Shown here: one piece after another, positions 5,466-63,584 of the stretch | How the letters are laid out: every line of letters starts with the position of its first letter | How positions within the stretch are numbered: the stretch's first letter is position 1 | NCBI GenBank assembly: GCA_027317865.1 | Contig: DAHVQG010000003.1 | Coordinates: forward strand, 159,263 to 223,262 | Length of the DNA stretch: 64,000 bases | Source: Bdellovibrionales bacterium | GTDB taxonomy: Bacteria; Bdellovibrionota; Bdellovibrionia; Bdellovibrionales; UBA1609 | Direction: 5' to 3' | Program-made: the position numbers and the translations under genes | The notes under the pieces: generated by a model | Databases searched by the model: none | Seen by the model: only the letters and a program-made list of their open reading frames with translations | Told to the model about the DNA's origin: nothing

Positions 5466-6786
5466 AGACTCACGGGTGAGAAAAATTGAAAAAGCGGCGG
5501 CGGCGGCCTTAGTTATGCCGGCACTTTCTGCGGATCAAAAAGCGACGGCGCTCAGTAGTTTTGCTGATCGAATTTGGCGCAAAAAAGATAATTTGCTCCA
5601 AGCAAATGCGCGGGATCTCAACCGCGAAAAGAAGTCGTTGCCTGCGGCGCTTTTGGCGCGCTTGAAACTTGACGAAGGTAAAATTGCCACGTTATGCGAG
5701 GGGATTCGTGCTCTTGCCAATGCGGAAGACCCCGTCCATCGCGTGATTGATCGCATTGAACTTGACCAGGGTTTGGTTCTTGAGAAAAGGACCGTTCCGA
5801 TTGGGGTGATCGCAGTTATTTTTGAATCGCGTCCCGATGTCATCCCCCAAATATTGTCGTTGATTCTGAAAAGCGGAAACGTGGCTCTGTTAAAGGGCGG
5901 GCGTGAAGCCCGATTGACCAATTTGGCGTTTATGAAAATCGTCTCTGAGCTGAATCGTGAATTGCGTTTTTTACCCGGCGCTTGGGCACAATTGTTTATT
6001 GAACGAAGTGATGTGGACCTAATATTGAAACAAAATAAGTTGGTAAATTTAGTCATACCACGCGGTTCAAATGCGTTGGTACAAGCGATCATGAATAAGA
6101 CAAAAATTCCAGTTCTCGGACACGCCGACGGAGTTTGCCATTTGTATTGGGATGAATCCGCCGATTTTGCGACGGTTCGTCGCGTAGTAATCGACGCAAA
6201 GACACAGTATCCGGCGGTGTGTAATGCCGTCGAAACGCTTCTCGTACATCGGTCGCGTGTCGCCGAGCTGGGCGAATTGCTTCACGAATTGGACAATCGT
6301 GGAGTTAAAATTTTTGGAGATTCTTCAGTTCAGCGTTTATATCACGCGACTTTAAAAAAGAAAGCGGGCCGAGCCGGCAATTGGCACACCGAATACGGCG
6401 ATCTTGCGCTATCGGTGCGTATTGTCGCCTCGGTAAGCGAAGCGATCGCCCACATCAATCGATTTGGCTCACATCATACCGACGGAATTTTAACTCGCGA
6501 TTTGAAATCGAAGCAGTCATTTTTGGCGGGTGTTGATTCTGCAACGATAACCGTAAACGCTTCGACTCGATTTGCTGACGGGTATCGGTTCGGAATGGGT
6601 GCAGAAGTCGGTATTTCAACGAGTAAAATTCACGCTCGCGGCCCCGTTGGCGTGGAGGGCCTCATGACAAATCAGTTTGTGTTGGTAGGGGATGGGCATA
6701 TTGTAGGCGACTATGTTGCGACAAACGACGGGGAGATGCCCGCGCGTAAACCGGTTCGAAAGTTCACCCACCGGCGGCTTATTTAA
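5458..6786 (+). CDS. proA: Gamma-glutamyl phosphate reductase
   Basis: IFESRPDV, VIPRGS, CNAVETLL, NASTRFADG, EVGISTSKIHARGPVG; ATG at 5458 overlaps the end of proB. Confidence 0.96.
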   Translation: MNKDSRVRKIEKAAAAALVMPALSADQKATALSSFADRIWRKKDNLLQANARDLNREKKSLPAALLARLKLDEGKIATLCEGIRALANAEDPVHRVIDRIELDQGLVLEKRTVPIGVIAVIFESRPDVIPQILSLILKSGNVALLKGGREARLTNLAFMKIVSELNRELRFLPGAWAQLFIERSDVDLILKQNKLVNLVIPRGSNALVQAIMNKTKIPVLGHADGVCHLYWDESADFATVRRVVIDAKTQYPAVCNAVETLLVHRSRVAELGELLHELDNRGVKIFGDSSVQRLYHATLKKKAGRAGNWHTEYGDLALSVRIVASVSEAIAHINRFGSHHTDGILTRDLKSKQSFLAGVDSATITVNASTRFADGYRFGMGAEVGISTSKIHARGPVGVEGLMTNQFVLVGDGHIVGDYVATNDGEMPARKPVRKFTHRRLI

Positions 6787-9181: not shown

Positions 9182-10887
9182 GCCTTGTTACCCAGATCGG
9201 ATGTATCAGCGCCGTTTTTATAACCGCGCGTAAAGATCACAATGCCAAATAAAAGTACGAAGAGCGCGTGAAGCAGCCACGGAAACTTTTGATAGCCCGT
9301 CGCCGAAGGGTGTTTTAGATACGGAATTCGATAAACTCCATACCATTCTTTGTAAATCGGCGATGCCTTTTGTGTTCCGGTTGCCGTACCTAAAACTTTG
9401 CCGTTCGGGAGCATGACTCCCGAAATGCCGGTGTTGGTTGAGCGAACCATCGGGCGTCCGTATTCAACGGCCCGAGCTAGTGTCATATAGAAATTTTGAT
9501 ACGGTTCTTGCCAGTCGCCGTACCACGAGTCGTTATTAATATTGACGAAAATTTGCGCTCCTTTATTCGCAATACCTCGAGCAAAACTTGAAAATATTCC
9601 TTCGTAGCAGATTTCCGGGCCCACTTTCAAGACCGTAAATGGAGGAATATGATCATTTTGCGGAAGTGGCAATTTTTTAACAACCGGACCCGGTCCACGC
9701 GCGAAATCGGCGGCGGGTATCCACTGGTACAATTTAGGGAACCAATTGCCGAACGGGATGTACTCGCCAAACGCCAGTAAATCAGTTTTGTAATACGGAT
9801 CTGGTTGAATCGTGTTGTTGCTCTGCACGATATAGAACGTGTTGGTCGGTTTGTTGTCTTTGGGGGAATATCCAAAACCGCCCACTAAAAACTGCGCATT
9901 ACTTGCGTGGGCTAAATTGAGAAGGGGCTGAGCGGTTTGAGGATAATTCGGTTGAATCTGCCACATCCGTTGATCGAGTGGATAGGGATAGGCCGTTTCG
10001 GGCCAAACAACAAAATCGACTGTGACGTGATTTTTTGCGGCGTCAGCCAAGCCGGCTTTGGTTTCACTTTCAAATTTATTTAAAATGTAATTGCGAAACC
10101 CCCAACCGTATTCGGCGTAAATCTTATCGAGGTTGCCGATATTCGCTTGAACAATGAGCGCATTCACTTTGGCATCGGGTTTCGGCAGCGACTTCAAAAG
10201 CGCATATCCAGCCAAATTAAATAAAACCACCACAGTCACAAGCGCCATTGCGGCTCGACGCCCCACTTTTTCGCGCCAATGAAAAATCACAAGAAAACTT
10301 AAAGCGTTGAGCAAAATCACAATGTCACTAAGGCCCTTAAAGCCGATCAGCTCGGCGACTTGAGCCACAGGCCAATGCATCCAAAGAAACGGATAGCCGT
10401 AATTCCATTCAAAAATCGTGGGGTACCAATCTTTGGCAAATAGAGTGCATATCGCAATTAGAATGAGATGGCGTCCTAAATTACGTTTGTTGATCTCAAA
10501 GTGTAGAATTTTTTGGGTAATCAACCACCACGCTAATCCGGCGATTGCAACGTCGAGATTGGCAAATGAACAAAATCCGATAAACCCCAGTGTTGAAATC
10601 CACCAAGGCATCATTCCAAAAACATGAATGGTGTGAAGGACCCAATCGAATCCGATTACGGTAAGAACAAACTGCGCAACCCAGCCGGCGATAAAGACCT
10701 GGCGCCAATTTTTGGCACGAAGCCAGAGCCACCACAGGGGAACGAATGCAAACAAACTCGCCCATGGCGGGAATGGAATGTAACTAAATCCGATAAAAAT
10801 ACCGGTGAGCACTGCCGGTTGGTAAAACCAGCAAGTTTGCCCAACTTTCTTTAATAGCGATCGAATTGACCATTTTGTGGTTGCCAT
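9178..10887 (-). CDS. lnt: Apolipoprotein N-acyltransferase
   Basis: Multiple TM helices; VWPET, K..LLAFGEYIP, ICYE, NDSWY, RSTNTGISG; start set at ATG 10887. Confidence 0.95.
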   Translation of the reverse strand: MATTKWSIRSLLKKVGQTCWFYQPAVLTGIFIGFSYIPFPPWASLFAFVPLWWLWLRAKNWRQVFIAGWVAQFVLTVIGFDWVLHTIHVFGMMPWWISTLGFIGFCSFANLDVAIAGLAWWLITQKILHFEINKRNLGRHLILIAICTLFAKDWYPTIFEWNYGYPFLWMHWPVAQVAELIGFKGLSDIVILLNALSFLVIFHWREKVGRRAAMALVTVVVLFNLAGYALLKSLPKPDAKVNALIVQANIGNLDKIYAEYGWGFRNYILNKFESETKAGLADAAKNHVTVDFVVWPETAYPYPLDQRMWQIQPNYPQTAQPLLNLAHASNAQFLVGGFGYSPKDNKPTNTFYIVQSNNTIQPDPYYKTDLLAFGEYIPFGNWFPKLYQWIPAADFARGPGPVVKKLPLPQNDHIPPFTVLKVGPEICYEGIFSSFARGIANKGAQIFVNINNDSWYGDWQEPYQNFYMTLARAVEYGRPMVRSTNTGISGVMLPNGKVLGTATGTQKASPIYKEWYGVYRIPYLKHPSATGYQKFPWLLHALFVLLFGIVIFTRGYKNGADTSDLGNKA

Positions 10888-10932
10888 CGGCTTTAAGATT
10901 AAAGCAAAATAAAACAAAATGGAAATCCAACC

Positions 10933-10960
10933 GTAATGGACACCCAACTGTAATGGACAC
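10933..10960 (+). repeat. 11-bp direct repeat GTAATGGACAC x2 (17-bp period)
   Basis: Copies at 10933-10943 and 10950-10960. Confidence 0.85.
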
Positions 10961-11762
10961 TGAACCCCAAATTTTATCGACGTCACTACTTAAAATCCGC
11001 TGTCCGAAGTGTCTGAAATTGTATGCCGTTAATCGGGCTGAAATGCATGAAACCCGCCCTAAGTTTCAGTGCCGTGCGTGTCATGAGAAATTTTGGGTGA
11101 CGGCGGTTGATGTTGCAAAAAATGACGAAGAGGTCATGGGCTTTCCGATGGATTGGCTTGCGACAACAGTTGACGCGCCAGCCGTACTCGATGATCGGGC
11201 GTATTCGTGCCCAAAGTGCGGCGAGCCTTATTCAGCCGGGCAGCACGAGTGTACGAAGTGCGGGCTCGTATTTATTAAATTTGTTGAACGGAATTTAGTT
11301 GAGCAAAAAACTATTCCAGATGAAGGGATTAGCGCTCCTAGTGAAGTTAAGCAGGCGTGGGATGAGGTCGTGGCTCGGTACGACGAATCTTCGGTGCATA
11401 ATAAATTTATAGAACTTGCGAATCGGTACGACTGTTTGGACTACGCGGCCAAGCGGTATGCGACGATTCTCGAAACATGCCCAGGTGATGATCGGGCGGC
11501 AAAAGCCCAACAAGAGATCATTGCTCTTACTACAACGCGATTTGAGAGCCGTACATTACCGGAGAAAGACGCCTCTTCAAATTGGTTCGAGCGTATTGAC
11601 CTTTTTATGCGCGGCATGCGGTTTACATCACTCGTTCTTATTTTATGCGGAATTGTGATTACCATGGGTGTGTTGTTACCAAGCGAACGTAATTTAGTTG
11701 GTATTGGTTCTTCGGTTTTATTTTTTATTTTAACGTTGCGGTATTATTTTCGGGTTATATAG
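10953..11762 (+). CDS. Zinc-ribbon (MJ0042-like) membrane protein
   Basis: CPKC/CRAC and CPKC/CTKC pairs, two C-terminal TM helices; likely start ATG 10953. Confidence 0.8.
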   Translation: MDTEPQILSTSLLKIRCPKCLKLYAVNRAEMHETRPKFQCRACHEKFWVTAVDVAKNDEEVMGFPMDWLATTVDAPAVLDDRAYSCPKCGEPYSAGQHECTKCGLVFIKFVERNLVEQKTIPDEGISAPSEVKQAWDEVVARYDESSVHNKFIELANRYDCLDYAAKRYATILETCPGDDRAAKAQQEIIALTTTRFESRTLPEKDASSNWFERIDLFMRGMRFTSLVLILCGIVITMGVLLPSERNLVGIGSSVLFFILTLRYYFRVI

Positions 11763-11789
11763 ACTTTTCAAAGACCTGTGCCGTAAGAG

Positions 11790-12731
11790 GTGGCAGTGGC
11801 CTCGACCGGAATAACTTCCATTAAAAAACACGAAAAACGTATTCTCGTTGTCGAAGACGATCCGTCTGTTTTATTGGTGATCAAAGAGGCGCTGGCTCAA
11901 GAGCGGTATGTGACTGAGCAAGCGACAACGGCTTCGGGCGCGTTCGAAAAAATAGCGTCGTTTCAACCTCATTTGGTTTTAACGGATCATGAAATGCCCG
12001 GTAAAACCGGGCTTGAGATGCTTCACGAATTGCGTAAGCAACAGAACTATGTGACCGTGCTTTTTATTTCGGGCAAGACCGATCCTAAACTTATCGCCGA
12101 TGTTTTGCGCGCCGGAGCGGATGATTTCATTAAAAAGCCTTTTCGCATGGATGAACTGTTAGCGCGTGTCGAAGTCGCGATGCGAGTCAATGAAGTTCAT
12201 CAGCACTTGCTTGCGGCTAATCAGCGGCTTCTCGAACTGGTGGAACTTGATGATTTGACAGGGCTCTACAATATGCGCTCGATGTACGACAAGATCGACG
12301 TGGAAATTAAACGTGCGCGACGGTTCGGTCGTTACGTCGGTTGCGTCATGGTTGATTTGGATCATTTTAAACTAATTAATGATAAACACGATCATTTATT
12401 CGGCAGCCAGGTAATAAAATTGGTCGGGCACTTGGTTAAAAGATCGATTCGCGATATTGATTTTGCCGCTCGTTACGGCGGCGACGAGTTTCTGGTGATA
12501 TTGACCGAGACCACACCTGAAGGAGTGCATACGTTCACCGAACGAATGCGCGCCAAAATCGAATCCGAGAAATTTGAATTCGACGGGCAGTTCGCCACTC
12601 TAACCGCTAGCCTTGGCTATTCAGTTGGCGGGACAAGCGACCCCCGAGAAGCCCGCGATCTAGTACGATCCGCCGATCGCGCGCTCTATAAAGCGAAAGA
12701 GGCGGGACGCAATCGCATCGAAGGCGAGTGA
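11790..12731 (+). CDS. REC-GGDEF response-regulator diguanylate cyclase
   Basis: Receiver domain (VEDD, TDHEMP, K), DDLTGLYN, RDID I-site, RYGGDEF. Confidence 0.95.
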   Translation: MAVASTGITSIKKHEKRILVVEDDPSVLLVIKEALAQERYVTEQATTASGAFEKIASFQPHLVLTDHEMPGKTGLEMLHELRKQQNYVTVLFISGKTDPKLIADVLRAGADDFIKKPFRMDELLARVEVAMRVNEVHQHLLAANQRLLELVELDDLTGLYNMRSMYDKIDVEIKRARRFGRYVGCVMVDLDHFKLINDKHDHLFGSQVIKLVGHLVKRSIRDIDFAARYGGDEFLVILTETTPEGVHTFTERMRAKIESEKFEFDGQFATLTASLGYSVGGTSDPREARDLVRSADRALYKAKEAGRNRIEGE

Positions 12732-12746
12732 GAGACGCGCAACGTT

Positions 12747-13955
12747 TTAACTTTGGTTTGCGCGCTTAAAGATTGCTCTAACGCTCGCGCCGATGACTTC
12801 TCCGTTTTTACCTAAACGATTCGAAGGGATCACTTTGCCATCGTGAAGCTGCGCAATTGTTTTTACGACAACCGACCCAAGCCCTACTGAAATTCGACCG
12901 CCCGCTTTCGCATCAATAAATCGAGTTGTGCGTCGTTCGCCGTAGTCTTTAAGTGCTTGTGCGGAAAACCCTGGCCCGTCATCGTTCACAAATACTTCGA
13001 CGTGATCGCCGAGTTTGTAGTCGATTGTGATTTCGTTCCGGGCAAAACTGAATGCATTTTGAAGCAGGTTTCGAAAAACCCGCTTCAACAATAGTGCGTT
13101 ACCATTGACGATTGCCGGCGTGGCCGGAGCGTTATTGCGAACTTGAAGCATTGTCTTCGTTTTTAACTGTTGTGTATCGAAAACTTCGAGTTCGTCTTCT
13201 ATAATTTCCGTTACGTCGACGGACGTTTTGCTGATATCGGTATCCGCCCCCGCGAGTTGACTCATCAACAATAAGTCATTGACCAAAGTTTCAATATAAT
13301 TCGCTTCTTTTTGCGACGTCACAACAAGCTCGCGTTTTGAGTCTTCGGCAAGACGGCCCTGCTCATCGGACAATAAAGATAAATTGTTCTGCATTGAGGC
13401 GATCGGCGTTCGTAAATCGTGCGCAAGTTCTTGTAATAAGCGAGTGCGCGATTTTTCTTTCGATTTCAATTCGTCGAAAAGCTTTTTAAGTAAAACAATT
13501 GCCGACAATGCCGACCCCAACAAAAATGCCGAAACAATAGCGAATGCAAAAAGTAATATGGGACGATGATATGGCGGATGTGAGCGCTTTTCTAACGATC
13601 GGGAATGTTTTGATAAAACATGCGGCCAGCGAGGTGAGAGCGCTATATACATCGTGTTTTTGTCGGTCAGTTTTTCAATAATAATGGGCGGCTTGTGGCG
13701 CCAAAAGGCGGTGGATTCAGTCCCATTTGGGAGAGTGACCTTACTGAGCTTGAAGGGGAGAGGACGATTTGTTGAGCTGCCGGATACCCGTCCGTTTGCA
13801 TCAAAAACCCAGGCATTAAATTGCGGTGGGTGATGAACAAAATTCCTTCGGTGCAGTTGAAAAAAAAGTTGAATAATAAAAAAGCTTAAAACCAAAAATA
13901 GAGCGGTAAACCCGAGACTGATAATCAAATATTTTCTCAGAAGCGGCAGCTTCAT
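12747..13955 (-). CDS. Sensor histidine kinase
   Basis: Two TM segments, AHDLRTP H-box, NLLQNA, DDGPGF. Confidence 0.93.
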   Translation of the reverse strand: MKLPLLRKYLIISLGFTALFLVLSFFIIQLFFQLHRRNFVHHPPQFNAWVFDANGRVSGSSTNRPLPFKLSKVTLPNGTESTAFWRHKPPIIIEKLTDKNTMYIALSPRWPHVLSKHSRSLEKRSHPPYHRPILLFAFAIVSAFLLGSALSAIVLLKKLFDELKSKEKSRTRLLQELAHDLRTPIASMQNNLSLLSDEQGRLAEDSKRELVVTSQKEANYIETLVNDLLLMSQLAGADTDISKTSVDVTEIIEDELEVFDTQQLKTKTMLQVRNNAPATPAIVNGNALLLKRVFRNLLQNAFSFARNEITIDYKLGDHVEVFVNDDGPGFSAQALKDYGERRTTRFIDAKAGGRISVGLGSVVVKTIAQLHDGKVIPSNRLGKNGEVIGASVRAIFKRANQS

Positions 13956-14623
13956 TTTTTATCCAAACGATAACCGATACCGTATATCGAACGAATGACA
14001 ATTTCTTTGAGACCGGCTGCTTTTAGTCGCGTGCGCAGACGGCTTACGTGAGAATCGATAGTGCGATCGAAAATTTCGCCATCGCGATGAAGTGCCGTGA
14101 TCAGCGCATCGCGAGTTACGACTGATCCTGAGTGTTCCATTAGGTATTGTAGTGTATCGAATTCGCGGCGATTGAGGTCCACTTCAACCTTGCCGCAAAA
14201 CACGCGACGCTGATTGATAACCAAAGTAACGTCGCCAAAGCATAATTGCTCGTCGCGCTGGATGGGCTCTTTTAGCGCGTTTTTAATTCTCGCAATTAAT
14301 ATTTTCGGTTTAAACGGCTTTTCGACGTAATCGTTGGCTCCGGCGCTGAAGCCGGCGAGCACCGCTTCTTCGTGGGTTTGCGCAGTTAAAATTACGACGG
14401 GTACGCGCGACTCGGATTTTCGCAGGTGTTTGCAAAATTCGAGTCCGTTGCCGTCGGGTAAACCGAGATCAAGTAGTACTAAATCGGCCGTCGAATTTTC
14501 GTTCGCTTTAAAAGCTGAGGTCAAATCGCGCACCCAAATAACGGTATGCTTTTCGCTTTCGAGCGTGAGTTGCAAGCTTCGGCCTAGAACAGGGTCATCT
14601 TCGACTAAAAGAATTTTGCTCAT
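13952..14623 (-). CDS. OmpR-family response regulator
   Basis: LVEDD, LLDLGLPDG and winged helix (RTIDSHVSRLR, IYGIGYR). Confidence 0.95.
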   Translation of the reverse strand: MSKILLVEDDPVLGRSLQLTLESEKHTVIWVRDLTSAFKANENSTADLVLLDLGLPDGNGLEFCKHLRKSESRVPVVILTAQTHEEAVLAGFSAGANDYVEKPFKPKILIARIKNALKEPIQRDEQLCFGDVTLVINQRRVFCGKVEVDLNRREFDTLQYLMEHSGSVVTRDALITALHRDGEIFDRTIDSHVSRLRTRLKAAGLKEIVIRSIYGIGYRLDKK

Positions 14624-14851
14624 TGTTCTGATATATTACTCACAAATGATTGCAGAAGTGTGGATTTTTTAATCGCGTCTACGTTCAAGTTCATCCATTC
14701 AACTGTATCAAAATGAGACGTATTTTTATAATTCCGGCTGAGCCATAAAGTCTCAACAGTTTGATGGTAATTTGAACCTAACGCTCCACGAGGAGCCAAA
14801 CATTCGGCCTAATAAATGCGCGCTAAAAAGCCGAAATAGAAGGAGTCATAT

Positions 14852-15190
14852 ATGAGTAAAAATAAAATTGTAGTAAGCCTGATGGTCGTATTGTTCGCAT
14901 TCGGTTCGGCCGTAGCTTTGGGGCAACCGAACCGTCGGCACCATCCGCCGTTCGGCTTTTTAATGGGTGCCTGTGTCGCGACAACGATGGCGCAAAACGG
15001 TTCGGCGTTTCCGCTGCAGCAAATGATCCAGCATATTCAGCAAAACATTCAAAATAAACAAAATGGTAAGCCATTTGTGAAACCAAATTTAGATGCCGCA
15101 ACTCGTGCGGCCATGAAGGCGGCATTTCAAACATGCCGGGGCGAACTGCCCTTTCCGCATTGGCAACATCCAGGAGCAAATAAATCATGA
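14852..15190 (+). CDS. Small secreted protein with two Cys
   Basis: SD AAGGAG, signal peptide; stop overlaps next ATG (ATGA). Confidence 0.75.
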   Translation: MSKNKIVVSLMVVLFAFGSAVALGQPNRRHHPPFGFLMGACVATTMAQNGSAFPLQQMIQHIQQNIQNKQNGKPFVKPNLDAATRAAMKAAFQTCRGELPFPHWQHPGANKS

Positions 15191-15675
15191 ACGGAAATTT
15201 GGCGCGGCTCAAATCATGTATCAGCAAAATCGGTTTTATGATCGCGGGCGTGGTGGTTTTTGCTGCCGCTCCCGCATACGCTACGCTTGGTGGTTCGGTT
15301 GATACCATTCAAACAGATGTTCACGCGCTACACGCACGAGTCATCGCCACGCAGCCGCACGCTCTTTACTCGGTTCACGAAATCACCTATGGCGCGACCA
15401 AGGTCCGGGAATACGCAAATACAAACGGAATCGTTTTTGCGATCGCGTGGAACGGGCTTACCCATCCCGATCTGTCGAAACTATTGGGAACATATTATGC
15501 CGGCTATAAGGCAAAAATTCAGTCGAGACCGCCGCAGATTAAAGGTGAACTGCTGCGCACATTGCGCGTCGGCACGTTAGTTGTTCAGATGGGCGGCCAC
15601 ATGCGCGACGTCGTTGGGCGTGCATATGATTCGTCTTTGATACCATCTGGGGTTTCGTTAAGCGACATTAAATAA
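15187..15675 (+). CDS. DUF2844 family secreted protein
   Basis: AYATLGG, VREY...G.VFAIAW.G..PDL..LLG.Y, GGHMR...GRAY...LIP.GV; sits upstream of DUF3443 as in Burkholderia. Confidence 0.85.
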   Translation: MNGNLARLKSCISKIGFMIAGVVVFAAAPAYATLGGSVDTIQTDVHALHARVIATQPHALYSVHEITYGATKVREYANTNGIVFAIAWNGLTHPDLSKLLGTYYAGYKAKIQSRPPQIKGELLRTLRVGTLVVQMGGHMRDVVGRAYDSSLIPSGVSLSDIK

Positions 15676-15699
15676 ATGTGATTTATATGAGGTAAATGC

Positions 15700-16986
15700 A
15701 TGAAGGAGCAATGGAGCGGCAAAACAATTGCAATAATTGTCGTCGGTACGTTTCTTCTTCTAATAGGTTTTAACAATTGCGGCAAAAGTTTTGAAGCGGT
15801 TGGCGCCGGTGGCAATGGTGCGGCCGGATATTATTCGCCAACGGGCCAGGTGCTTGCCGAATGCGCGCAATTCGGAACGGGTTCGGACTGGGGGCCTGTC
15901 GAAATGGCAAATGTCGTTTTAGGCGGTGAGCCGGCCGTGACCATTCCGGTTCAAGTGATCGACTCGTCTTATGCAACCGTGCCGTCCAGTTGCCCTTCGC
16001 CCGATACGGATCCGAAAACCGCGGGGTTTAACGGCATTTTAGGCGTCGGTTTATTTAAACAAGATTGCGGGTCTCAGTGTACAACTGATTCAACCACGCA
16101 AATGTATTATGTTTGCAACAACAGCTCTTGTACCGCAACAACCGCAACACTCGCCGAACAAGTGACAAATCCCGTCGCGGAACTGCCGCAAGATAATAAC
16201 GGTGTCGCCTTGGTTTTGCCGACCGTCGCATACAGCGGCGGATACTTTGCGAACGGTTACATGCTTTTGGGGATCGGAACCGAAAGTAATAACTCCCCTG
16301 CGGCAGTGACCGAGTTAACTGCGGACGATACGTATGGCGAATTTACGGATGAATTTAACGGCACGCAAATGTCTGGGTTCATCGATAGCGGGTCAAACGG
16401 ATATTTTATACCGGCGTCTTCGAAGTATTATCCGGATTGCACGAACTCCCAATACAATCAGTGGTTCTGCCCTTCTGCAAATTACAGTTCGACTGCCACT
16501 GCCATCGGGGTGAATAACAAGCAAGAGTCGTTTCCGTTTCAAATTGGCAATGCCGAAAATTTGTTTAATTCAGGTAATTTCGCGTTTATGAATTTGGGCG
16601 GCGACAGCAGCGGCTCGCTCGGCAGTTTCGGCGATATGGGATTGCCATTTTTCTTTGGCCGAACTGTATATGTCGGCCTCGAACATACCAAATCACCGAT
16701 CGGCACTGGCCCCTATTGGGCGTTTTCTGGCGGTCAAAATCTGGTTGATGTGAACGGTTCGGTCGCTATCCCGCCGGGCCCGAATGTGATGACCGTTTCG
16801 ATCGGCAACACGGGTCAGTGCGACGGTGACAGTTACGACAATGAACCGTGTACGTCAGTTACGATTTGCTCACCTGGTTCGACAAATTGCCAAACTATAA
16901 ACAACATTTTGGTCGATACGGGCAGTTACGGTCTGCGGGTTTTTTCGTCGGTACTTCAGGTCAATCTCAAACCTGAAAATCCGTGA
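15700..16986 (+). CDS. DUF3443 family pepsin-like lipoprotein, apparently circularly permuted
   Basis: FNNC lipobox; LAEC..F...WG, NGILGVG, NPV...DNNGV, FIDSGSN, GLPFFFGR; VDTGSYGLR block at the C-terminus. Confidence 0.85.
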   Translation: MKEQWSGKTIAIIVVGTFLLLIGFNNCGKSFEAVGAGGNGAAGYYSPTGQVLAECAQFGTGSDWGPVEMANVVLGGEPAVTIPVQVIDSSYATVPSSCPSPDTDPKTAGFNGILGVGLFKQDCGSQCTTDSTTQMYYVCNNSSCTATTATLAEQVTNPVAELPQDNNGVALVLPTVAYSGGYFANGYMLLGIGTESNNSPAAVTELTADDTYGEFTDEFNGTQMSGFIDSGSNGYFIPASSKYYPDCTNSQYNQWFCPSANYSSTATAIGVNNKQESFPFQIGNAENLFNSGNFAFMNLGGDSSGSLGSFGDMGLPFFFGRTVYVGLEHTKSPIGTGPYWAFSGGQNLVDVNGSVAIPPGPNVMTVSIGNTGQCDGDSYDNEPCTSVTICSPGSTNCQTINNILVDTGSYGLRVFSSVLQVNLKPENP

Positions 16987-17605
16987 TGATCGTCATCTGT
17001 GGATGATCGAGTAGCCAACTTGCCGGGAGCTTTTGGCGCTCCGACTCGACTTTTTTTGCGCCGGCATCAAGAACCCTTTTGAGGATTTCTTTTTTTTGCA
17101 AACCGCGAACGAGTAGAGCAATGGCTTTCGTTTTTAAAAAAGCGTTTGCTCCATAAGAAACCGCGCGTGTGTTCGGCGGCAAATGAAGACGGGCACAGGT
17201 GTCGTCGGTGAGTGTCAGACATCCCGAATAAAATTTTTGCGGCAGGCTCGGTTCATGAAATGCGATGTGGCCGTTCATACCGAGCCCTAAAAATGCGAAA
17301 TCCGCGCCTCGTTCAGCCGTATCAATAAATTCGAATCGCGGCTTGAACATCGGCAATTCATCTAAAAAAAATTTTTGAAACGGGCGCTCGGTATTATGCA
17401 ATATTTCATCAACTTGCACTAAGCGTATCGATTCATCGACGAGCTGCGGATTTTCGCGCCATGACCTGTAAAGAGGTCGAGGGGTCTCGCCTGCGGGCAC
17501 AAAAAGTCGAAACGGGCGTGGAGTTATATTACGGCTTTGTTGATGGAGCCAATCGTTGGCACAATCAATCCACTCGCGTTCATTTTTACAAACTTCGAAG
17601 TTCAT
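16967..17605 (-). CDS. Glucosamine-6-phosphate deaminase / 6-phosphogluconolactonase family (NagB-like)
   Basis: PAGETP, QVDE, GLGMNGHIAFHEP, LPASWL..HP. Confidence 0.8.
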   Translation of the reverse strand: MNFEVCKNEREWIDCANDWLHQQSRNITPRPFRLFVPAGETPRPLYRSWRENPQLVDESIRLVQVDEILHNTERPFQKFFLDELPMFKPRFEFIDTAERGADFAFLGLGMNGHIAFHEPSLPQKFYSGCLTLTDDTCARLHLPPNTRAVSYGANAFLKTKAIALLVRGLQKKEILKRVLDAGAKKVESERQKLPASWLLDHPQMTIITDFQV

Positions 17606-17670
17606 ACCTGCGCGTCAGCTCTAGTCCCGCTTTCGCCTCCTCGCTAAAATTGTAACTGAGGTCTACTGTT

Positions 17671-18375
17671 TTGAAAAAGTGTAATTTAGTAATTGTCGCG
17701 CACCCCGATGACGAGACGTTGTTTTTCGGAGGACTTATACTCGCCGATCGTCGCTTCGAATGGCGCGTTGTGTGCGTGACGGATGGCAACGCCGATGGGT
17801 TGGGGTCAGAGCGGCACAATCAGTTCGCGCGCGCCTGCCGGGCGCTCGGCGTTCGACACCATGAATTCTTTGATCTGCCTGATCGATATGACTCGCGGTT
17901 ATCGCAAAATGAGTTACAAACACGTCTTAGAGGACTTTATGATCGTCTAAGACGGGAGGGCCAGTCGCTCCACGATGTTTATACACACGGCCCGCTCGGC
18001 GAGTATGGGCACCCCCACCATCAGGATGTTTCTCTTGCCGTCCATGAAACCCTTGCGCTGCAGACGCGAAAATCATCAAAGGTTTGGGGGGTGGCTTACA
18101 ATTGTGCAGCTGACCGCGTTCTCGAATTGTCTCACGCGCATTTCAAGAAAAAGTCCGATATTTTGGCGAAAATTTATTTAGGCGAGACAACCCGGTTTAT
18201 TCAATTTTTACCGGCAACAAGTGCCGAAGCATTTGCACGTTTTAAATTGTCAGAAGTTCGAGCATTGCATGCTTATATATCCGCTAAAACCGCACCGACC
18301 GCGCTTTACAAATATAATTGGTTCCGGCCTTATTTGGCGGCTTTTCGCGAAGCTGTGGTCAAACGTCCGTTTTAG
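17671..18375 (+). CDS. PIG-L/LmbE family N-acetylglucosaminyl deacetylase
   Basis: AHPDDE, TDG, THGPLGEYGHPHH. Confidence 0.9.
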   Translation: MKKCNLVIVAHPDDETLFFGGLILADRRFEWRVVCVTDGNADGLGSERHNQFARACRALGVRHHEFFDLPDRYDSRLSQNELQTRLRGLYDRLRREGQSLHDVYTHGPLGEYGHPHHQDVSLAVHETLALQTRKSSKVWGVAYNCAADRVLELSHAHFKKKSDILAKIYLGETTRFIQFLPATSAEAFARFKLSEVRALHAYISAKTAPTALYKYNWFRPYLAAFREAVVKRPF

Positions 18376-18394
18376 CCCGGCTCTTCGCGTTGGT

Positions 18395-19057
18395 TTAGGC
18401 TGCCGATTGACGGCGTAATTTTTCACGCAATTCTTGCACTTCGGCTCTCAGACGTTCGTTTTCTTGCACCAAATCTCGGATCTTTTTTTGAAGTAATTCG
18501 GCTGAGTTAATCGCTTTAGCTGCCGGTTGCGCGGTAGGTATTGAGCGCTCGCTTGTAACAGCGGGGGTGAGGGGAACTGCGGCTTGCGCCAGAAGTTCTT
18601 CGATATTTTCAGAAATGATTAATTCAGGAGCGAACTTTTCGGCTCGCAAGCGGCCGTCGAGCATCATCGCCCGCGCCTCTTCGATAATTTTCAAAAATGC
18701 GGCCGAGATTTCGGCTGGCGACGGGGAATTTGTTTTAAAAAGATCGTCAATTGTCCGTTTTTGGGCGTGGGTGTGAGTTTGTAATAGGCGGCTGCTCTGC
18801 TCACTGCTTAAGCCGTGCATGGCCGTCGCAAGAGTTAATACGGCTAGGCCCTTAGAAACTTCGGCGATTGTGTTGTCGTTCCAGTTCAACATTTTTTCGA
18901 TTGTAAGCATTTTTTCGCGCACGGCGCGCGCCCACCGAGGATCTTCGCCTTCTATGATGTTTAAAAAATTATCCTGCTTTTGTTTACCGCAGGTTTCGAT
19001 TAGCTGAATAAGTTGTATAAAGCCGCCTGGCCTTTGGTAGCGCGATAACATACCCAT
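18395..19057 (-). CDS. FliG C-terminal-domain-like protein with coiled-coil tail
   Basis: EDPRWARAVREKMLTIE resembles the FliG-C helix/MFxF region; no neighbouring flagellar genes. Confidence 0.65.
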   Translation of the reverse strand: MGMLSRYQRPGGFIQLIQLIETCGKQKQDNFLNIIEGEDPRWARAVREKMLTIEKMLNWNDNTIAEVSKGLAVLTLATAMHGLSSEQSSRLLQTHTHAQKRTIDDLFKTNSPSPAEISAAFLKIIEEARAMMLDGRLRAEKFAPELIISENIEELLAQAAVPLTPAVTSERSIPTAQPAAKAINSAELLQKKIRDLVQENERLRAEVQELREKLRRQSAA

Positions 19058-19085
19058 CGATTTGCTCCCGAATCCCGTCTAAAAT

Positions 19086-19113
19086 ACATCGGCACATTGG
19101 CGCCTAAACTCAA
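19086..19113 (-). promoter_or_regulatory. Sigma-28 (FliA)-like promoter
   Basis: Minus strand TTGAGTTTA-N11-GCCGATGT upstream of the FliG-like gene. Confidence 0.45.
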
Positions 19114-19164
19114 GGCCGGTTGAATTAAATGTTGCCGGCTGAGCTAAATCATTCAAAGTTTCAA

Positions 19165-20202
19165 CTAGCGATGGTGGCGCGGCACAAAATGATGATGTAA
19201 ATGCGGATGTGGTCGGTAATATTTGCGATAGACGTGGCGTCCGCTACCCTCTAGAGCTTTGGCGGTCGGTTTGTGCATGCGCATGGTTGGTGCGTTTCGC
19301 CATAAATTCGCGACTACAAATGTATCGATTTGATCGATGTTTTTGACTTTGCGTTGTCTTAAATTTTGGTACAGTGCTGGGTTATGCGCGCGAATATCCG
19401 CCATAACCGACTTAAACGCTCGCCTTTGCAATTTGTGTAGTTCTTGTTGTTGCGCTTTCGGCAATTTCGCTATGGCCCGCTTGCTGATTTTGACTTCAGA
19501 TTGTCGATGAATTTTAGCTAACTCGCTTCGTGTCGTCTGAATGACACGCGGAGCTGAATGAGATTTTGTGCTCGAATCGGCAGAAAAACCGGTTTTCACA
19601 GTTACGATCTGCGACGGATCTTTGGCGTTACGAAAAGCCACTGCTCCCCGCAAGACCGTCAGTTCTGTGCCGATATTGGCGTTCGACCGGGTGAAAAAGT
19701 CAGTTCCGCGTACGCCGGCGATCGCGTCGGGTGTCACAATGCGAAGGTGGTTGCGCGGCCCCACTTTTGAAATAAGCGCGCGGAACCTACCGTAAAACAT
19801 TTTGAGCATGGAATTGGCGTGGACATTCTGATGCGGATTGTTTTGAGTTGCGGCATTTTTCAAATCAACCGGCAAAACAAACGAGCTGGCTTTGCCGATA
19901 AAAAAAGTGTCGCCATTCGGATAAACGATTCTGATTTTTCCGTTTGTGCCACTGAGTACGATTTCACCTGGGCTTAGCTTTTGGCCGATTTTTGCAAGAT
20001 GATAGACGTATTTCTTTCCGTGCAATTTCGCAAATGGACCGTGGGCACCCGCTTGCGGTAGATGCAGAATTTTAACGTCACCTTGAACGGCGAGTATAGT
20101 CCCGACAAAAGTCTGCGCAAGGGCCGCCGACCCGGCACACAAAAATCCGGCACAAAGAAGTTCGACAATAATCACGTTGATGCGGTTAAGATGTAATTTC
20201 AT
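19165..20202 (-). CDS. FecR-domain secreted protein with His-rich tail
   Basis: Signal peptide, TPDAIAGVRGTDF FecR motif, VLRGAV. Confidence 0.85.
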   Translation of the reverse strand: MKLHLNRINVIIVELLCAGFLCAGSAALAQTFVGTILAVQGDVKILHLPQAGAHGPFAKLHGKKYVYHLAKIGQKLSPGEIVLSGTNGKIRIVYPNGDTFFIGKASSFVLPVDLKNAATQNNPHQNVHANSMLKMFYGRFRALISKVGPRNHLRIVTPDAIAGVRGTDFFTRSNANIGTELTVLRGAVAFRNAKDPSQIVTVKTGFSADSSTKSHSAPRVIQTTRSELAKIHRQSEVKISKRAIAKLPKAQQQELHKLQRRAFKSVMADIRAHNPALYQNLRQRKVKNIDQIDTFVVANLWRNAPTMRMHKPTAKALEGSGRHVYRKYYRPHPHLHHHFVPRHHR

Positions 20203-20257
20203 AATAAAAAAGCGTCACTGAAAGTCAGCACACAGTCAAGCGGTTAGGAGCGATGTT

Positions 20258-21043
20258 ATGGTTGCGAAGCGAATGGTAAAGCAATTGCTAGTAATGGGTA
20301 CGGTGGTTGTGTTCGCTGCCGCGCCGGCTCTCGCCGACAATATCAATGACGTTTTAAACGATGCAAAACTGAGTTACCCCGAACTTGAAGTTACTCCGCG
20401 AGCTTCGGCTCGGCTTAAAATGGAGGCGCGCGCCGAAATCTATAATCACTGGGAGCTTCACATACCCGTTCAAAGTTCGGCGCTTTTGACTCTTGCGGCG
20501 GCAATAAGTGCTCAACCAAGAGCTAATCTTTCATCATCCCAACAGTCAGCATTTGATTCCTCAAAGCAAATCGCCATAGGCGTCGGCGTGGGGTGGCTCG
20601 CTATAACCCTGGGGCTATCAGCCTGGTATCGCCCGTATCTTTCCGGTTATCGTGAAATCGCCAGAATGCCGAACAAAACGGAGCGGCAACAATTGACGCG
20701 CGAGCGCCTGGCTGAAGAAGCTTTGTATGCCCCCGAAGACCTTGCGATTAAAATTAAATGGTTTTCATTTGTGTCGAATCTCGCCGCGAACGTTGCGGTC
20801 ATGACGAATGCCGACAAATCGTCACAGGGTTTTTTGGCCGTTGCGGCTTTTGCCTCACTCGCACCGATTTTGTTCCCCTATCGATGGGAGACGGTTGCGG
20901 AGTTGCAGCGCAAGTATTTAAAACGAATTTATGGACCGGTGACAAGCGCGGTCTTGATGCCGGTGGAGGTTGCTAATTCTTCGCGGGCGCCAGATTCAGC
21001 TGTACGATACTCGCCGGGAGTCGAGATGCAATGGACTTTCTAA
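20258..21043 (+). CDS. Exported/membrane hypothetical protein
   Basis: Signal peptide (APALA), hydrophobic hairpins, C-terminal GVEMQWTF. Confidence 0.7.
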   Translation: MVAKRMVKQLLVMGTVVVFAAAPALADNINDVLNDAKLSYPELEVTPRASARLKMEARAEIYNHWELHIPVQSSALLTLAAAISAQPRANLSSSQQSAFDSSKQIAIGVGVGWLAITLGLSAWYRPYLSGYREIARMPNKTERQQLTRERLAEEALYAPEDLAIKIKWFSFVSNLAANVAVMTNADKSSQGFLAVAAFASLAPILFPYRWETVAELQRKYLKRIYGPVTSAVLMPVEVANSSRAPDSAVRYSPGVEMQWTF

Positions 21044-21920
21044 ATATGCCCGGTTTCAAATTATAAAACGTATCTTTTGAGATATTTTCGGCAAATGCGA
21101 CGGATTGTACAGCGGGTAGACCAAGTCCGCCGTTTGTGATCGCATAGTTATATGCCGTGATAAAATTGTCGGCAGCTTCCGGCCCTTGTGCAACCACATT
21201 GTCTGCAATTTTGAGCGCCGTTGCAATGGGGGCAGCCGGGCCCTTACTTGAAGTTAGAAAGCGATATAGTTTTATAAACTGGCCGGCAATTAGTGCATCA
21301 AAGTTTTCGGCCCGTTTTACTACGCGTGCGGCAATAATACCGCAAAGCGGTTTGGAGTAATTCATGCCTTTGCTGCTGTCACAAAATTTTACGAGTTTAA
21401 CAAAATCTTTAGCAGCTATACGAGGGTCGCCGGTGTAATTTGTTGCGAGCGCATTAGCGAGAATCAATGACGTGCGATAATCGAGATTCAGATATTTAGT
21501 TAAATAACTTCGGGTGAAAACCAAAACGAAGGTATCGCTGTAAGCTTGGGGGCGGTTTGCGAGTTCAACGGCAATCTTTATAGCGTCGTGCGTGCCCGAA
21601 CCGGATTTCGATAAAACTTCGAACACTTTCACAAAACGTCCCGCTGCGCCTGAGCAGCCTTTTGCCACCTGACTTGCGACGTCGAACATTTGCTCCCGAG
21701 TGAGTGCTAAATCCGGGTGCTTTTGTAAATATTCAAATGTTGTTATGAACTCTCGCGCTGAAGAGCAACGTTCAGGCACTTGGCTTGCTTTTAGCAGTTT
21801 AGTATCGAGATGTGCTGTCGTGAGGTCCTTCAAAGATGCCGCTTGGGCGACACGTGTAGGCGCAAGCGAAAAGATACTAAAAGCGAAAACGCAACAAAGC
21901 GTGCGAAGTATAAATTTCAC
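20973..21920 (-). CDS. Secreted helical-repeat hypothetical protein
   Basis: Signal peptide (VAQA); internally repeated F..L..FL...K..GL pattern. Confidence 0.7.
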   Translation of the reverse strand: MKFILRTLCCVFAFSIFSLAPTRVAQAASLKDLTTAHLDTKLLKASQVPERCSSAREFITTFEYLQKHPDLALTREQMFDVASQVAKGCSGAAGRFVKVFEVLSKSGSGTHDAIKIAVELANRPQAYSDTFVLVFTRSYLTKYLNLDYRTSLILANALATNYTGDPRIAAKDFVKLVKFCDSSKGMNYSKPLCGIIAARVVKRAENFDALIAGQFIKLYRFLTSSKGPAAPIATALKIADNVVAQGPEAADNFITAYNYAITNGGLGLPAVQSVAFAENISKDTFYNLKPGIFRKSIASRLPASIVQLNLAPAKN

Positions 21921-22064
21921 TCTTTTGATATCGGTTTAACTGCGCAATCGCCCGATGGCCTATCGTCGAGCTGTAGTGCGTTATTTGTCGCGGCGCTAAT
22001 GTAAAACAAATAATCGCAGCATAGTCTTGTGCCGTGAACTCTAGTTGCGCGAGGATGCGAGATT

Positions 22065-22805
22065 ATGATTGAACTACCAATTGTAGAATACTTGCGGGGG
22101 CAGCCGGTGACCGGGCGAAAGATTTATATAATTGAAGACGAACAAGATATTTCGGAGTTGATGCGGTTTAATTTGTCGCTTGAAGGTTTTGCAGTCGAAA
22201 CTTTTTCTACGGGCGAAGCCGGGCTAAAAGCGATCGAAGAAAACGCTCCGGATCTGCTGATTCTCGATATCATGCTCCCCGGTATGAGCGGGCTCGAAAT
22301 TTGCCGGCAATTAAAAGAAGGGCAAAACACAAAAAAAATTCCAACTATTATTGTCTCTGCGCGTGGCGAAGAGGCCGATGTCGTGCGCGGTCTTGAAATA
22401 GGCGCGGACGACTACGTAACAAAACCGTTTAGCCCCAAAGTGTTGCACGCGCGGGTTGAAGCGGTTTTACGGCGCGGGCAAGAGGCGCGAAAAGCGGCTG
22501 AAGTGGTTCAAATCGGCGGACTTACGATCAATGCCGGTCGTGTCGAGGTGCTTGTTGACGGTGAAAAAGTCAGTCTCACCCAATCCGAATTTCGGATTCT
22601 ACATTTTTTAGCGCAACGACCCGGCTGGGTCTATACGCGCTCACAAATCGTTGAAGCCATTCGCGGCGAAAACTATTCAGTCACCGACCGTACGATCGAT
22701 TTTCAAATGGTGGGCTTACGAAAAAAACTGGGCTCAGTGGGGCATCTGATTGAAACGGTTCGGGGAGTAGGGTATCGGTTCAGAGATTCGGAACCTAATT
22801 TGTGA
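22065..22805 (+). CDS. phoB: PhoB-like response regulator
   Basis: IEDE, LDIMLPG, GADDYVTKPFSP, IETVRGVGYRF; precedes a PhoR-like kinase. Confidence 0.85.
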   Translation: MIELPIVEYLRGQPVTGRKIYIIEDEQDISELMRFNLSLEGFAVETFSTGEAGLKAIEENAPDLLILDIMLPGMSGLEICRQLKEGQNTKKIPTIIVSARGEEADVVRGLEIGADDYVTKPFSPKVLHARVEAVLRRGQEARKAAEVVQIGGLTINAGRVEVLVDGEKVSLTQSEFRILHFLAQRPGWVYTRSQIVEAIRGENYSVTDRTIDFQMVGLRKKLGSVGHLIETVRGVGYRFRDSEPNL

Positions 22806-24106
22806 ACGACCGACGGCAACCCGCGAAATCACGACAATTTTTTTGGCAAATTTTTGCCGCACTCAGCGGCCTGAGCGTCTGTTCGCTTTTAGCGGCTTAT
22901 TTCATTGCGCCGTCTGATCCGAAACTTTTGCGAGCTTTAATGATTTTGCTCCCTGTGCAATTCGTTGTCTCTGTGATACTGGCCCTGCGATTGCGGCGAC
23001 CCGTAGATGTCTTGCGTTTGGCTTTGCAGCGTATTCGCTTGCAACTTCGACACCGAATTCAAATGTTGTCGGCGCAAAAAAATGAACAAGACGCTTTGTT
23101 ATCGTCAATGGCCGAGGGTGTGGTCGCCATCGATGCAGAAATGCGGATTATACAGGTTAATCGTGCGGCAGCCCGAATCTTGCAACTTGATCCGAAAGCC
23201 GCAGTGGGCTGTTTGTTGCACGATTTAATTCAAGAGCCATCGGTTATCGAACTCATTGAAACGGTCCGGCGCGATAATCAATCAGCAGAGCGCGACATCG
23301 AGCTCAAGGGCGATCGTTCGCGCCATTTGCAGGTGCAAGCCGGTCCCATGAATTTTGACGCCAAAGCGGCCGGGGTGGTGGTCGTGTTTTCAGATGTAAC
23401 TCGTATGCGAGAACTTGAGGGTATGCGCCGCAATTTTGTTTCTAACGTTTCGCACGAACTGCGCACGCCGCTGACGTCGATACAGGGTTTCGCCGAGACT
23501 TTGCTCAATCCGGCGGTAAAAGACCCCGAAGAAGTTCGCAAATTCTTGCAGATTATTCAACGTCATGCCACCCGTCTCGGCCGCATCATCGACGACATAC
23601 TGACACTTTCGAGTCTCGAGCGTGATGCTGAAAATAATCAAATTGAACTTAAAATTGATTTGATTCGGCCCGTCCTGCAGGCGGCTGTCGAACTATGCGG
23701 CAAAAAGGCCGAGGTTAAAAAAATCAAAATCGAATTGACGTGTGCCGAAGAGATTTCAGCTCCAATTGATACGCATCTACTTGAACAAGCCGTGATCAAC
23801 CTAGTTGACAATGCCGTCCGCTATAGCGATGAAGGCCAGCCGATTCGTGTTGAAGCTGAGCAAGTTGGGTCTGAAATTTTCATTCGTGTGATCGACCATG
23901 GAATTGGCATTCCTGAAAAACAATTGCCGCGGATTTTTGAACGTTTTTACCGTGTCGACAAAGCCCGCAGCCGCGAACTCGGTGGCACAGGCTTAGGGCT
24001 ATCAATTGTTAAACATATTGCGCTCGCACACAAAGGGAGCGTTGAGGTACAGAGCCAGGTCGGTGAGGGGAGCCAATTTACAATTCGGCTACCCTCATCT
24101 CAGTAG
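22802..24106 (+). CDS. phoR: PhoR-like PAS sensor histidine kinase
   Basis: FVSNVSHELRTPLTSIQGFAETL, RIFERFYRVDKARSRELGGTGLGLSIVKH. Confidence 0.88.
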   Translation: MNDRRQPAKSRQFFWQIFAALSGLSVCSLLAAYFIAPSDPKLLRALMILLPVQFVVSVILALRLRRPVDVLRLALQRIRLQLRHRIQMLSAQKNEQDALLSSMAEGVVAIDAEMRIIQVNRAAARILQLDPKAAVGCLLHDLIQEPSVIELIETVRRDNQSAERDIELKGDRSRHLQVQAGPMNFDAKAAGVVVVFSDVTRMRELEGMRRNFVSNVSHELRTPLTSIQGFAETLLNPAVKDPEEVRKFLQIIQRHATRLGRIIDDILTLSSLERDAENNQIELKIDLIRPVLQAAVELCGKKAEVKKIKIELTCAEEISAPIDTHLLEQAVINLVDNAVRYSDEGQPIRVEAEQVGSEIFIRVIDHGIGIPEKQLPRIFERFYRVDKARSRELGGTGLGLSIVKHIALAHKGSVEVQSQVGEGSQFTIRLPSSQ

Positions 24107-63507: not shown

Positions 63508-63584
63508 CGGACCGTGGCTCAGCCCGGTAGAGCGCTTGCTTGGGGTGCAAGAGGTCGTGGGTTCAAATCCCGCCGGTCCGACCA
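63508..63584 (+). tRNA. tRNA-Pro (GGG)
   Basis: CGGACCG acceptor stem, CTTGC-TTGGGGT-GCAAG anticodon arm, GGTTCAAATCC T-arm, 3' CCA. Confidence 0.96.

Follow-up and report, generated by a model that had tools for sequence, protein, structure and literature searches.

A probable natural circular permutation in a DUF3443 protein with a predicted pepsin fold from a Bdellovibrionales bacterium

Results

Layout of the DUF3443 gene

The subject of this study is a gene of the DUF3443 family in a 64,000-nucleotide stretch of DNA from a Bdellovibrionales bacterium (contig DAHVQG010000003.1, positions 159,263 to 223,262 of the forward strand), the whole of which is called the window below. The gene lies on the + strand at 15700..16986 as one intact open reading frame (ORF) of 428 amino acids, and two parts of the encoded domain, here called segments A and B, follow each other in the reverse of their canonical order. 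The ORF is divided as follows.

15700..15780, + strand: signal peptide, hydrophobic, with F-N-N-C at its end (Cys27 at 15778-15780)
15781..15834, + strand: Gly/Ala-rich tether of 18 residues (28-45), with no hidden Markov model (HMM) match
15835..16725, + strand: segment B, residues 46-342, the remaining N-lobe and the complete C-lobe (Pfam profile 73-367)
16384-16395, + strand: DSGS motif (D229), within segment B
16726..16980, + strand: relocated block, residues 343-427, SGGQN and then segment A, the canonical N-terminal strands (Pfam profile 4-64)
16915-16926, + strand: DTGS motif (D406), within the relocated block
16976..16986, + strand: right junction and stop codon, AAAAT (16976-16980), then CCG and TGA, compared with the related locus L001

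Segment B ends in PYWAF, which is the C-terminus of canonical DUF3443 proteins. The block after PYWAF runs from the NVMTVSI strand through to the DTGSYGLRVFSS motif, the connecting stretch being SGGQNLVDVNGSVAIPPGP, and about 20 residues link PYWAF to the first strand of segment A. The relocated block carries the strands NVMTVSI, PCTSVTI and QTINNILVD together with the motif DTGSYGLRVF, and the stop codon falls 21 residues past D406. An earlier sequence-only reading of this DNA had proposed that a block of N-terminal type stands after PYWAF behind a short linker and that the two Asp motifs occur in swapped order; both features can be read directly in the intact ORF, where DSGS (D229) comes before DTGS (D406).

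The same reading had described an FNNC box followed by the start of the domain. This arrangement is seen in the sequence, and the DUF3443 match begins at about residue 48, after the Gly/Ala-rich linker. A hydrophobic signal leads to Cys27, and the F-N-N-C box departs from the family consensus L-x-x-G-C. Nearly all of 71 canonical relatives have a Cys at the anchor place (consensus L-x-x-G-C-G), and the signal end FNNCGK is common to the window protein and to its canonical relatives P0002 and P0003. The residues at this place suggest that the window protein is probably lipid-anchored at Cys27.

Segment order against the family profile

Pfam hmmscan matched the window protein to DUF3443 (PF11925) in two stretches, with E=3.6e-115 and 385.3 bits against a gathering cut-off of 25. 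The best stretch placed residues 48-342 on profile positions 73-367 (profile length 367). When the parts were scanned alone, residues 48-342 matched profile 75-367 (E=3e-96) and residues 343-428 matched profile 4-64 (E=1.2e-20; matched part about 361-422). These reversed-order matches to PF11925 are far beyond chance. The window protein showed no collinear match to the whole model of the kind seen in canonical members, whereas canonical P0002 and P0003 each gave a single collinear stretch (profile 5/6-367).

A local HMM built from 71 canonical DUF3443 relatives gave the same picture: residues 48-342 of the window protein matched positions 116-405 and residues 353-425 matched positions 40-111, both there and in the near-identical protein P0001. 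Circular permutation relative to canonical DUF3443, and the reversed order of HMM hits by which it was to be checked, were both borne out, with profile 73-367 preceding 4-64. Related loci in genome contigs, 44 in number, hold 45 DUF3443 genes, and in all of them (45/45) A stands before B in one frame. Within one ORF, the N-terminal part of the window protein is homologous to the C-terminal part of the canonical protein and vice versa; by sequence comparison, it is a homologue of the family with a permuted chain. No second DUF3443 copy was found in the window by tblastn.

Relatives and gene order

A homology search scored 5130 relatives, and among the best 120 only P0001 covered the whole query, the others covering 68-73%. 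P0001 (428 amino acids) has the same architecture as the window protein and differs from it at 2 residues. Both NCBI and ENA list it, on a contig of 6,281 bp, and it stands for a cluster of 8 sequences; as judged from its sequence, it is a second, non-identical public record of the architecture. The next relatives are canonical, namely P0002 (431 amino acids) and P0003 (417 amino acids). P0003 is encoded at L001, a locus in a Bdellovibrionales metagenome-assembled genome (MAG) and the closest genome locus. Gene order was compared by tblastx between window positions 8001-24000 and L001, with the following correspondences.

Window 8001-12733, L001 740-5336: upstream flank
Window 15265-15699, L001 5457-5891: DUF2844
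Window 15841-16725, L001 6247-7131: segment B
Window 16741-16980, L001 6001-6240: segment A, 69% amino acid identity
Window 17050-18375, L001 7137-8476: downstream genes

The flanks on both sides are collinear with L001, which indicates that the 85-codon block alone has changed place, going from the 5' end of the gene to its 3' end.

Residue conservation was assessed in an alignment of 71 canonical proteins with 34 invariant and 75 nearly invariant columns. The window protein retains 34/34 of the invariant and 68/75 of the nearly invariant residues; both Asp motifs are among those kept, as are all 12 conserved Cys. D406 and D229 correspond in the alignment to D99 and D304 of P0003, respectively; both Asp are invariant in the family. 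Segment A of the window protein is 73% identical to that of P0002 and 77% to that of P0003, and P0002 and P0003 share 73% with each other; the corresponding values for segment B are 67%, 59% and 69%. The moved block therefore shows no extra divergence, since its 73-77% identity matches the 73% between the canonical A segments.

Predicted fold

The permuted query could not be aligned to canonical rows: MAFFT with all 45 A fragments misplaced segment A onto the start of the C-lobe. The fold was predicted from an alignment (A1) of the window protein, P0001 and 10 A-part and 45 B-part translations from the loci, in which fragment placement was verified. The best AlphaFold2 model on A1 had a mean predicted local distance difference test score (pLDDT) of 77.9 and a predicted template modelling score (pTM) of 0.80, with low confidence only at residues 1-47 (pLDDT <50), 347-353 and 425-428. 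In this model the relocated block forms strands at 363-369, 384-390, 397-406 and 412-414, and its 10-residue pLDDT means were 86-91 except for 59 (371-380) and 75 (411-420). The AlphaFold2 model of canonical P0003 (71 rows) reached pLDDT 91.2 and pTM 0.86.

Foldseek placed both queries, which are predicted models, in the bilobal pepsin fold. Against the Protein Data Bank (PDB), the window model matched pepsin-like aspartic proteinases, with 1ent (endothiapepsin) as the best hit (E=6.1e-5) and 46 matches at E<=1e-3; its alignments had template modelling (TM) scores of 0.46-0.50 over about 320-334 columns. The canonical model gave at least 500 hits, the best being 1m43_A (plasmepsin II; E=3e-11), with TM up to 0.62 over about 407 columns. 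The shorter and weaker alignments of the window model are expected, because the aligner depends on sequence order and the chain is permuted.

Searches with sequence and profiles did not reveal this relationship. The window protein had no match at E<=1 to the Pfam families Asp (PF00026), TAXi or retropepsin, and the DUF3443 family profile found nothing relevant among PDB sequences, the only hit being an irrelevant one with E=1.2. Language-model neighbours outside DUF3443 include PF00026/TAXi_C clusters with scores of 0.79-0.85, which serve as leads only. Each lobe has one D-T/S-G motif (D406-T-G-S and D229-S-G-S), and profile comparison of lobe with lobe (hhalign) found a likeness confined to 12 residues around each Asp (E=0.003). 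The designation pepsin-like, made in the earlier reading, is thus clear from the predicted fold in both models and not visible by sequence. The models indicate that the DUF3443 family has a bilobal pepsin fold in which both Asp motifs are invariant.

On the canonical model, the window cut falls between P0003 residues 118 and 123, in the loop between strands 103-108 (after DTGS) and 126-133. The original N- and C-terminal strands of a pepsin fold are adjacent in the inter-lobe sheet.

Other permuted DUF3443 proteins

A junction search with residues 300-428 (end of B, linker and A) against 1.84 billion representatives gave 1346 hits at E<=1e-3. Several of the best 150 of these aligned as one stretch that spans the junction of the old termini in the middle of the protein. 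When the local HMM was run on 268 proteins, 11 were non-collinear, P0001 included. A search with P0134, one of these, yielded 7 more permutants of its class (P0312-P0318, 59-68% identity); a 187-kb contig of a Nitrospiraceae MAG carries one of the seven. In total 18/396 database proteins were non-collinear, 17 beyond P0001, at three other cut sites, in a sample enriched for permutants by the choice of queries. Pfam confirmed the reversed coordinates of the permutants. The three cut sites and the proteins from the 268 assigned to them are as follows.

Inter-lobe cut (Pfam profile about 169-170): P0134, P0171, P0268, P0201, P0138 and P0199; hairpin turn flanked by two conserved Cys
Cut just after the strand following DSGS: P0164 and P0131; pseudo-symmetric counterpart of the window cut
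Cut in the hairpin turn just before DSGS: P0259

In Pfam profile positions, the cuts of the other permutants lie at about 169-170, 247 and 271, and the window cut at about 64-73. All permutant cuts sit in a loop or hairpin turn. The old C-terminus is joined to the old N-terminus via a short linker, with 4-14 residues between the matched stretches. Eight full-length permutants were inspected, and each has a lipoprotein signal and tether at the front and ends at the complementary position. P0131 is probably N-terminally incomplete, and P0217, also non-collinear, is a fragment. The divergence of the inter-lobe class to 59-68% identity indicates that permuted forms persist.

Several further observations were made on these proteins. 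P0134 and P0164 are 69% identical and have a similar junction of the old termini but different cuts (inter-lobe, and after the DSGS strand). This combination points either to a common, longer intermediate with different trimming in each, or to a second round of permutation. In P0134, P0171, P0268, P0201, P0138, P0199, P0312 and P0313, the new ends each bear one of the two conserved Cys, one lying 2-3 residues before the C-terminus and the other directly behind the tether; by their positions, a disulfide may staple the new ends of the inter-lobe class together. P0230 (255 amino acids) matched only HMM positions 27-144 and 319-405, so that the central part of the domain is missing; either a deletion or an error in gene calling may account for this. 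P0136 (1214 amino acids, 9 stretches) was rejected as a permutant, being an unrelated repeat protein with MBG_2 and a type IX secretion system (T9SS) tail.

Independence of the permutations

For phylogenetic analysis, HMM-hit pieces were merged per protein in model order; with 14 short rows removed, P0131 and P0217 among them, 254 rows were left. On the FastTree tree, the permuted and canonical states required 7 changes. A quick IQ-TREE search under LG+G4 used 44 rows, 10 permutants and 34 canonical proteins that were mostly their neighbours, and required 8 changes. Groupings in the 44-row tree are listed with their Shimodaira-Hasegawa-like approximate likelihood ratio test (SH-aLRT) values.

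Window protein and P0001, sister to canonical P0002 and P0003: SH-aLRT 99
The group of window protein, P0001, P0002 and P0003, joined by canonical P0005: SH-aLRT 99
P0138 with canonical P0236: SH-aLRT 100
P0134 with P0164 (different cuts, 69% identical): SH-aLRT 100
P0171 with canonical P0128: SH-aLRT 94
P0201, P0268, P0199 and P0259 in a clade with 6 canonical rows: SH-aLRT 99

Forcing all 10 permutants into one clade changed the log-likelihood by -412 units (approximately unbiased (AU) test, p=7.5e-6), the tested group being defined by architecture but named after the first tree had been seen. Together, the tree and the AU test reject a single origin, which indicates that the window event was independent and recent. 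An evenly balanced proposition is that DUF3443 is a pepsin-fold family unusually prone to natural circular permutation, with at least four cut sites in loops or turns, several independent origins and the tether kept in front, and that, unless such cases have been described before, these are the first in which the pepsin fold itself is naturally permuted. That the window gene is the youngest case of DUF3443 permutation could equally go either way.

Junctions and route of the rearrangement

The comparison with canonical sequences suggests that the moved block comprises 16726-16980, beginning with the SGGQN linker, continuing through LVDVNGS and finishing with KPEN, 85 codons in length. At the old site, the tether runs directly into YYSPTGQVLAEC. 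At the new site, the block follows PYWAF and ends in P-E-N codons, and canonical relatives also have P-E-N at the A/B boundary. The bases after the block (CCG TGA...) are part of the downstream gene, which is convergent and conserved at this 3' end. For AAAAT (16976-16980), the sequence allows an origin either from the P-E-N codons or from the 3' end of the downstream gene; it is a possible 5-nucleotide microhomology.

The downstream gene is the following.

16967..17605, - strand: Glucosamine_iso-like gene (PF01182), convergent, syntenic with L001 7131-7952

It overlaps the DUF3443 ORF by 20 nucleotides (16967-16986). The relocated block contains its stop codon and the two codons before it, and its C-terminus reads TDFQV* here versus TDFEID* in L001. 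The location of these codons indicates that the rearrangement rewrote the C-terminus of the neighbouring gene.

Repeats of >21 nucleotides were absent from 15500-17200, with none at the junctions. Composition of the relocated block (GC content 0.50, third-position GC content 0.53) was close to that of the rest of the gene (0.51 and 0.55). A scan for promoters and terminators gave counts at chance level. The block could have reached its new place by duplication and then two deletions, or in one step by cut-and-paste or template switching. Tandem canonical DUF3443 genes were observed at L005, in a MAG labelled Gammaproteobacteria, at 6001-7044 and 7266-8396; tandem genes such as this pair are the substrate that a duplication-based permutation would need.

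The probable DUF2844 partner and the neighbourhood

A second conserved gene precedes the DUF3443 gene.

15187..15675, + strand: DUF2844 gene, 162 amino acids (PF11005, E=3.6e-35)

The DUF2844 gene is intact and ends 24 nucleotides before the DUF3443 start. A DUF2844 homologue lies directly upstream on the same strand in 44/44 related loci, which span Bdellovibrionota, Burkholderiaceae and MAGs labelled Dehalococcoidia, Bacillota and Acidiferrales. In P0386 (716 amino acids), DUF2844 (41-170) and DUF3443 (352-716) are naturally fused in one chain. The adjacency in 44/44 loci and the P0386 fusion argue for a functional partnership, and the DUF3443 protein probably acts with or on the DUF2844 product. 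The DUF2844 profile found nothing among PDB sequences. An NCBIfam search with three proteins gave no relevant match, DUF2844 having one weak hit far below cut-off (E=0.13), and PADLOC gave no match.

Further features of the window are listed below.

12747-13955, - strand: histidine kinase
13952-14623, - strand: OmpR-type response regulator
14852-15190, + strand: signal-bearing ORF of 112 amino acids, overlapping the DUF2844 start
18395-19057, - strand: small protein with a FliG C-terminal domain and coiled-coil tail
19165-20202, - strand: FecR-domain protein
63508-63584, + strand: tRNA-Pro (GGG), by Rfam and ARAGORN, the sole RNA gene found in the window

The two-component system and the 112-residue ORF (12747-15190) are absent from the otherwise syntenic L001. 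The FliG-related and FecR-domain proteins have no part in the finding.

Discussion

The permuted protein and its alternatives

We consider it likely, with a probability of roughly 0.8, that the ORF represents a real natural circular permutation of a probably lipid-anchored, secreted DUF3443 protein with a pepsin fold, likely an aspartic-type peptidase. An 85-codon block holding the first N-lobe strands, DTGS included, would have moved in frame from behind the signal and tether to the 3' end. The old C-terminus, PYWAF, would thereby have been joined to the old N-terminus, with new termini in the loop following the strand after DTGS. With the old termini of the pepsin fold side by side, the chain could still take up the same three-dimensional structure. 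On this reading, residues 46-342 and 355-425 would form the two lobes together, with D406 opposite D229 in the cleft; the C-terminal 85 residues would supply the first Asp and segment B the second. The protein would be exported and tethered via Cys27 and, by analogy with pepsin-like enzymes, the Asp pair may activate water for peptide-bond hydrolysis in the inter-lobe cleft at the membrane surface.

A new anchor point had also been claimed for the protein. This stands in so far as the signal and Cys27 are now followed by what used to be the middle of the N-lobe, lipidation itself being presumptive. With the tether attached at what was the A/B loop, the cleft may face the membrane differently than in canonical members.

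Several points weigh against this interpretation. F-N-N-C is not a textbook lipobox. The searched literature contained no paper naming DUF3443 or DUF2844, so that catalysis by the family stays a prediction from sequence and models. The other four AlphaFold2 models of the window protein were weaker (pLDDT 70.5, 62.0, 50.0 and 46.7), and just 11 rows of the alignment extended over the relocated block. The canonical model is well ordered around the cut (pLDDT 97-98 at residues 111-130), so that new termini at this point may reduce stability. Among the best 120 hits of the first search and the 150 listed from the junction search, P0001 alone shared the window-type cut, which is thus confined to a single 90%-identity cluster. 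This restriction suggests a young event, and the kept residues may accordingly reflect recency rather than selection. Intermediates with an A-B-A-B tandem fusion were found in 0/43 of the longer proteins checked (of 44 longer hits), which is weak evidence. The three junctions are those of the assembled contig; the concern about misassembly is weakened because P0001, a second and non-identical record, has the same order and the junctions are in frame.

One unlikely alternative is that the fold serves binding and not catalysis, as in pepsin-fold inhibitors, so that the permutation would matter for tethering only. It would fit the lack of a biochemical record for DUF3443 in the searched literature, the lack of a sequence match to PF00026 and the presence of TAXi_C-bearing clusters among the language-model neighbours (0.79-0.85, leads only). 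Both Asp and the following G-S are, however, invariant in 71 canonical relatives and kept in the window protein, and to our knowledge non-catalytic pepsin-fold proteins generally lose these residues, which counts against binding.

We regard as similarly improbable that the rearrangement is real but its product dead, in the form of a young pseudogene or a misfolded protein. The occurrence of the window cut in one 90% cluster only is compatible with such an outcome, as are the canonical state of the nearest relatives (59-67% identity), the position of the cut in a well-ordered region of the canonical model, the low or middling scores of four of the five AlphaFold2 models and the altered last codons of the convergent neighbour. 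A dead product is at odds, however, with the retention of 34/34 invariant residues and all 12 conserved Cys, and with the existence of two variants that differ by 2 substitutions only, neither of them frameshifted. The moved block shows no excess divergence and is ordered in the best model (pTM 0.80), and the DUF2844 partner gene is intact 24 nucleotides upstream. Other permutants have been maintained at 59-68% identity, which indicates that the fold tolerates new termini.

An assembly artefact, in which 255 bp of a canonical DUF3443 gene were put in the wrong place on the contig, is hardly credible: the window is probably a metagenome-style assembly and its closest genome locus is a MAG, but both internal junctions are in frame in an intact ORF, repeats that might confuse an assembler are absent from the junctions, synteny of the flanks with L001 is perfect, a second record with 2 amino acid differences has the same order, and the same kind of rearrangement occurs in 17 other proteins from other sources.

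Significance

Circular permutation is a known route of protein evolution, but it is rare to find a recent event whose ancestral arrangement can still be seen in a close relative. The existence of a canonical sister with identical gene neighbours means that the event in the window DNA is directly readable. Permutation by duplication versus cut-and-paste is discussed in PMC3320104, and the question applies to the window gene too; with flanks, breakpoints and canonical sister all available, this gene bears on the debate between duplication-and-deletion and cut-and-paste.

DUF3443 and DUF2844 are both families whose function is not known; DUF3443 gains a predicted pepsin-fold assignment, and DUF2844 becomes its obligate neighbour and, once, its fusion partner. 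The permuted classes would mark sites at which the pepsin fold tolerates new termini, which is useful for engineering and for questions of lobe folding, and the permutants would form a natural series for studying the ways and places in which the chain of a two-lobed enzyme can be re-threaded. Software that assumes collinearity, whether aligner or domain caller, will mis-score or split permuted genes of this kind.

In a literature search for a permuted protease fold among aspartic proteases, the papers listed were all either related to swaposin or irrelevant. The main text of the CIRPIN survey (PMC13552848) contains neither 'pepsin' nor 'DUF', and a large structural survey of this kind may still list the family.

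Comparison with known systems

Canonical DUF3443 proteins such as P0002 and P0003 share with the window protein the FNNCGK end of the signal, an upstream DUF2844 gene, the flanking genes and the invariant residues. They differ in chain order: canonical members run signal, A, B, and the window protein runs signal, B, A. As a result of this change, the tether joins the domain at a different surface point than in canonical DUF3443. The other permuted DUF3443 proteins have the same fusion of old termini as the window protein but other cut sites and other positions in the tree.

Bacterial homologues of pepsin have been described (PMC2761423). Pepsin-like proteinases (MEROPS A1), for example 1ent and 1m43, share the bilobal fold with the predicted models at a Foldseek probability of 1.00, and they too carry one D-T/S-G-S/T motif per lobe, with inter-lobe likeness limited to the motif. 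In contrast to this shared fold, DUF3443 has no detectable sequence relationship to them, with 9-16% identity in structural alignments. DUF3443 proteins also differ from pepsin-like proteinases in their lipoprotein signal, their many extra Cys and their DUF2844 partner, and in the window protein the chain order is permuted as well.

The classic natural circular permutation, according to PMC3320104, is swaposin, the plant-specific insert of plant aspartic proteinases. There the permuted unit is a saposin-like insert, whereas in the window protein the predicted pepsin fold itself would be permuted.

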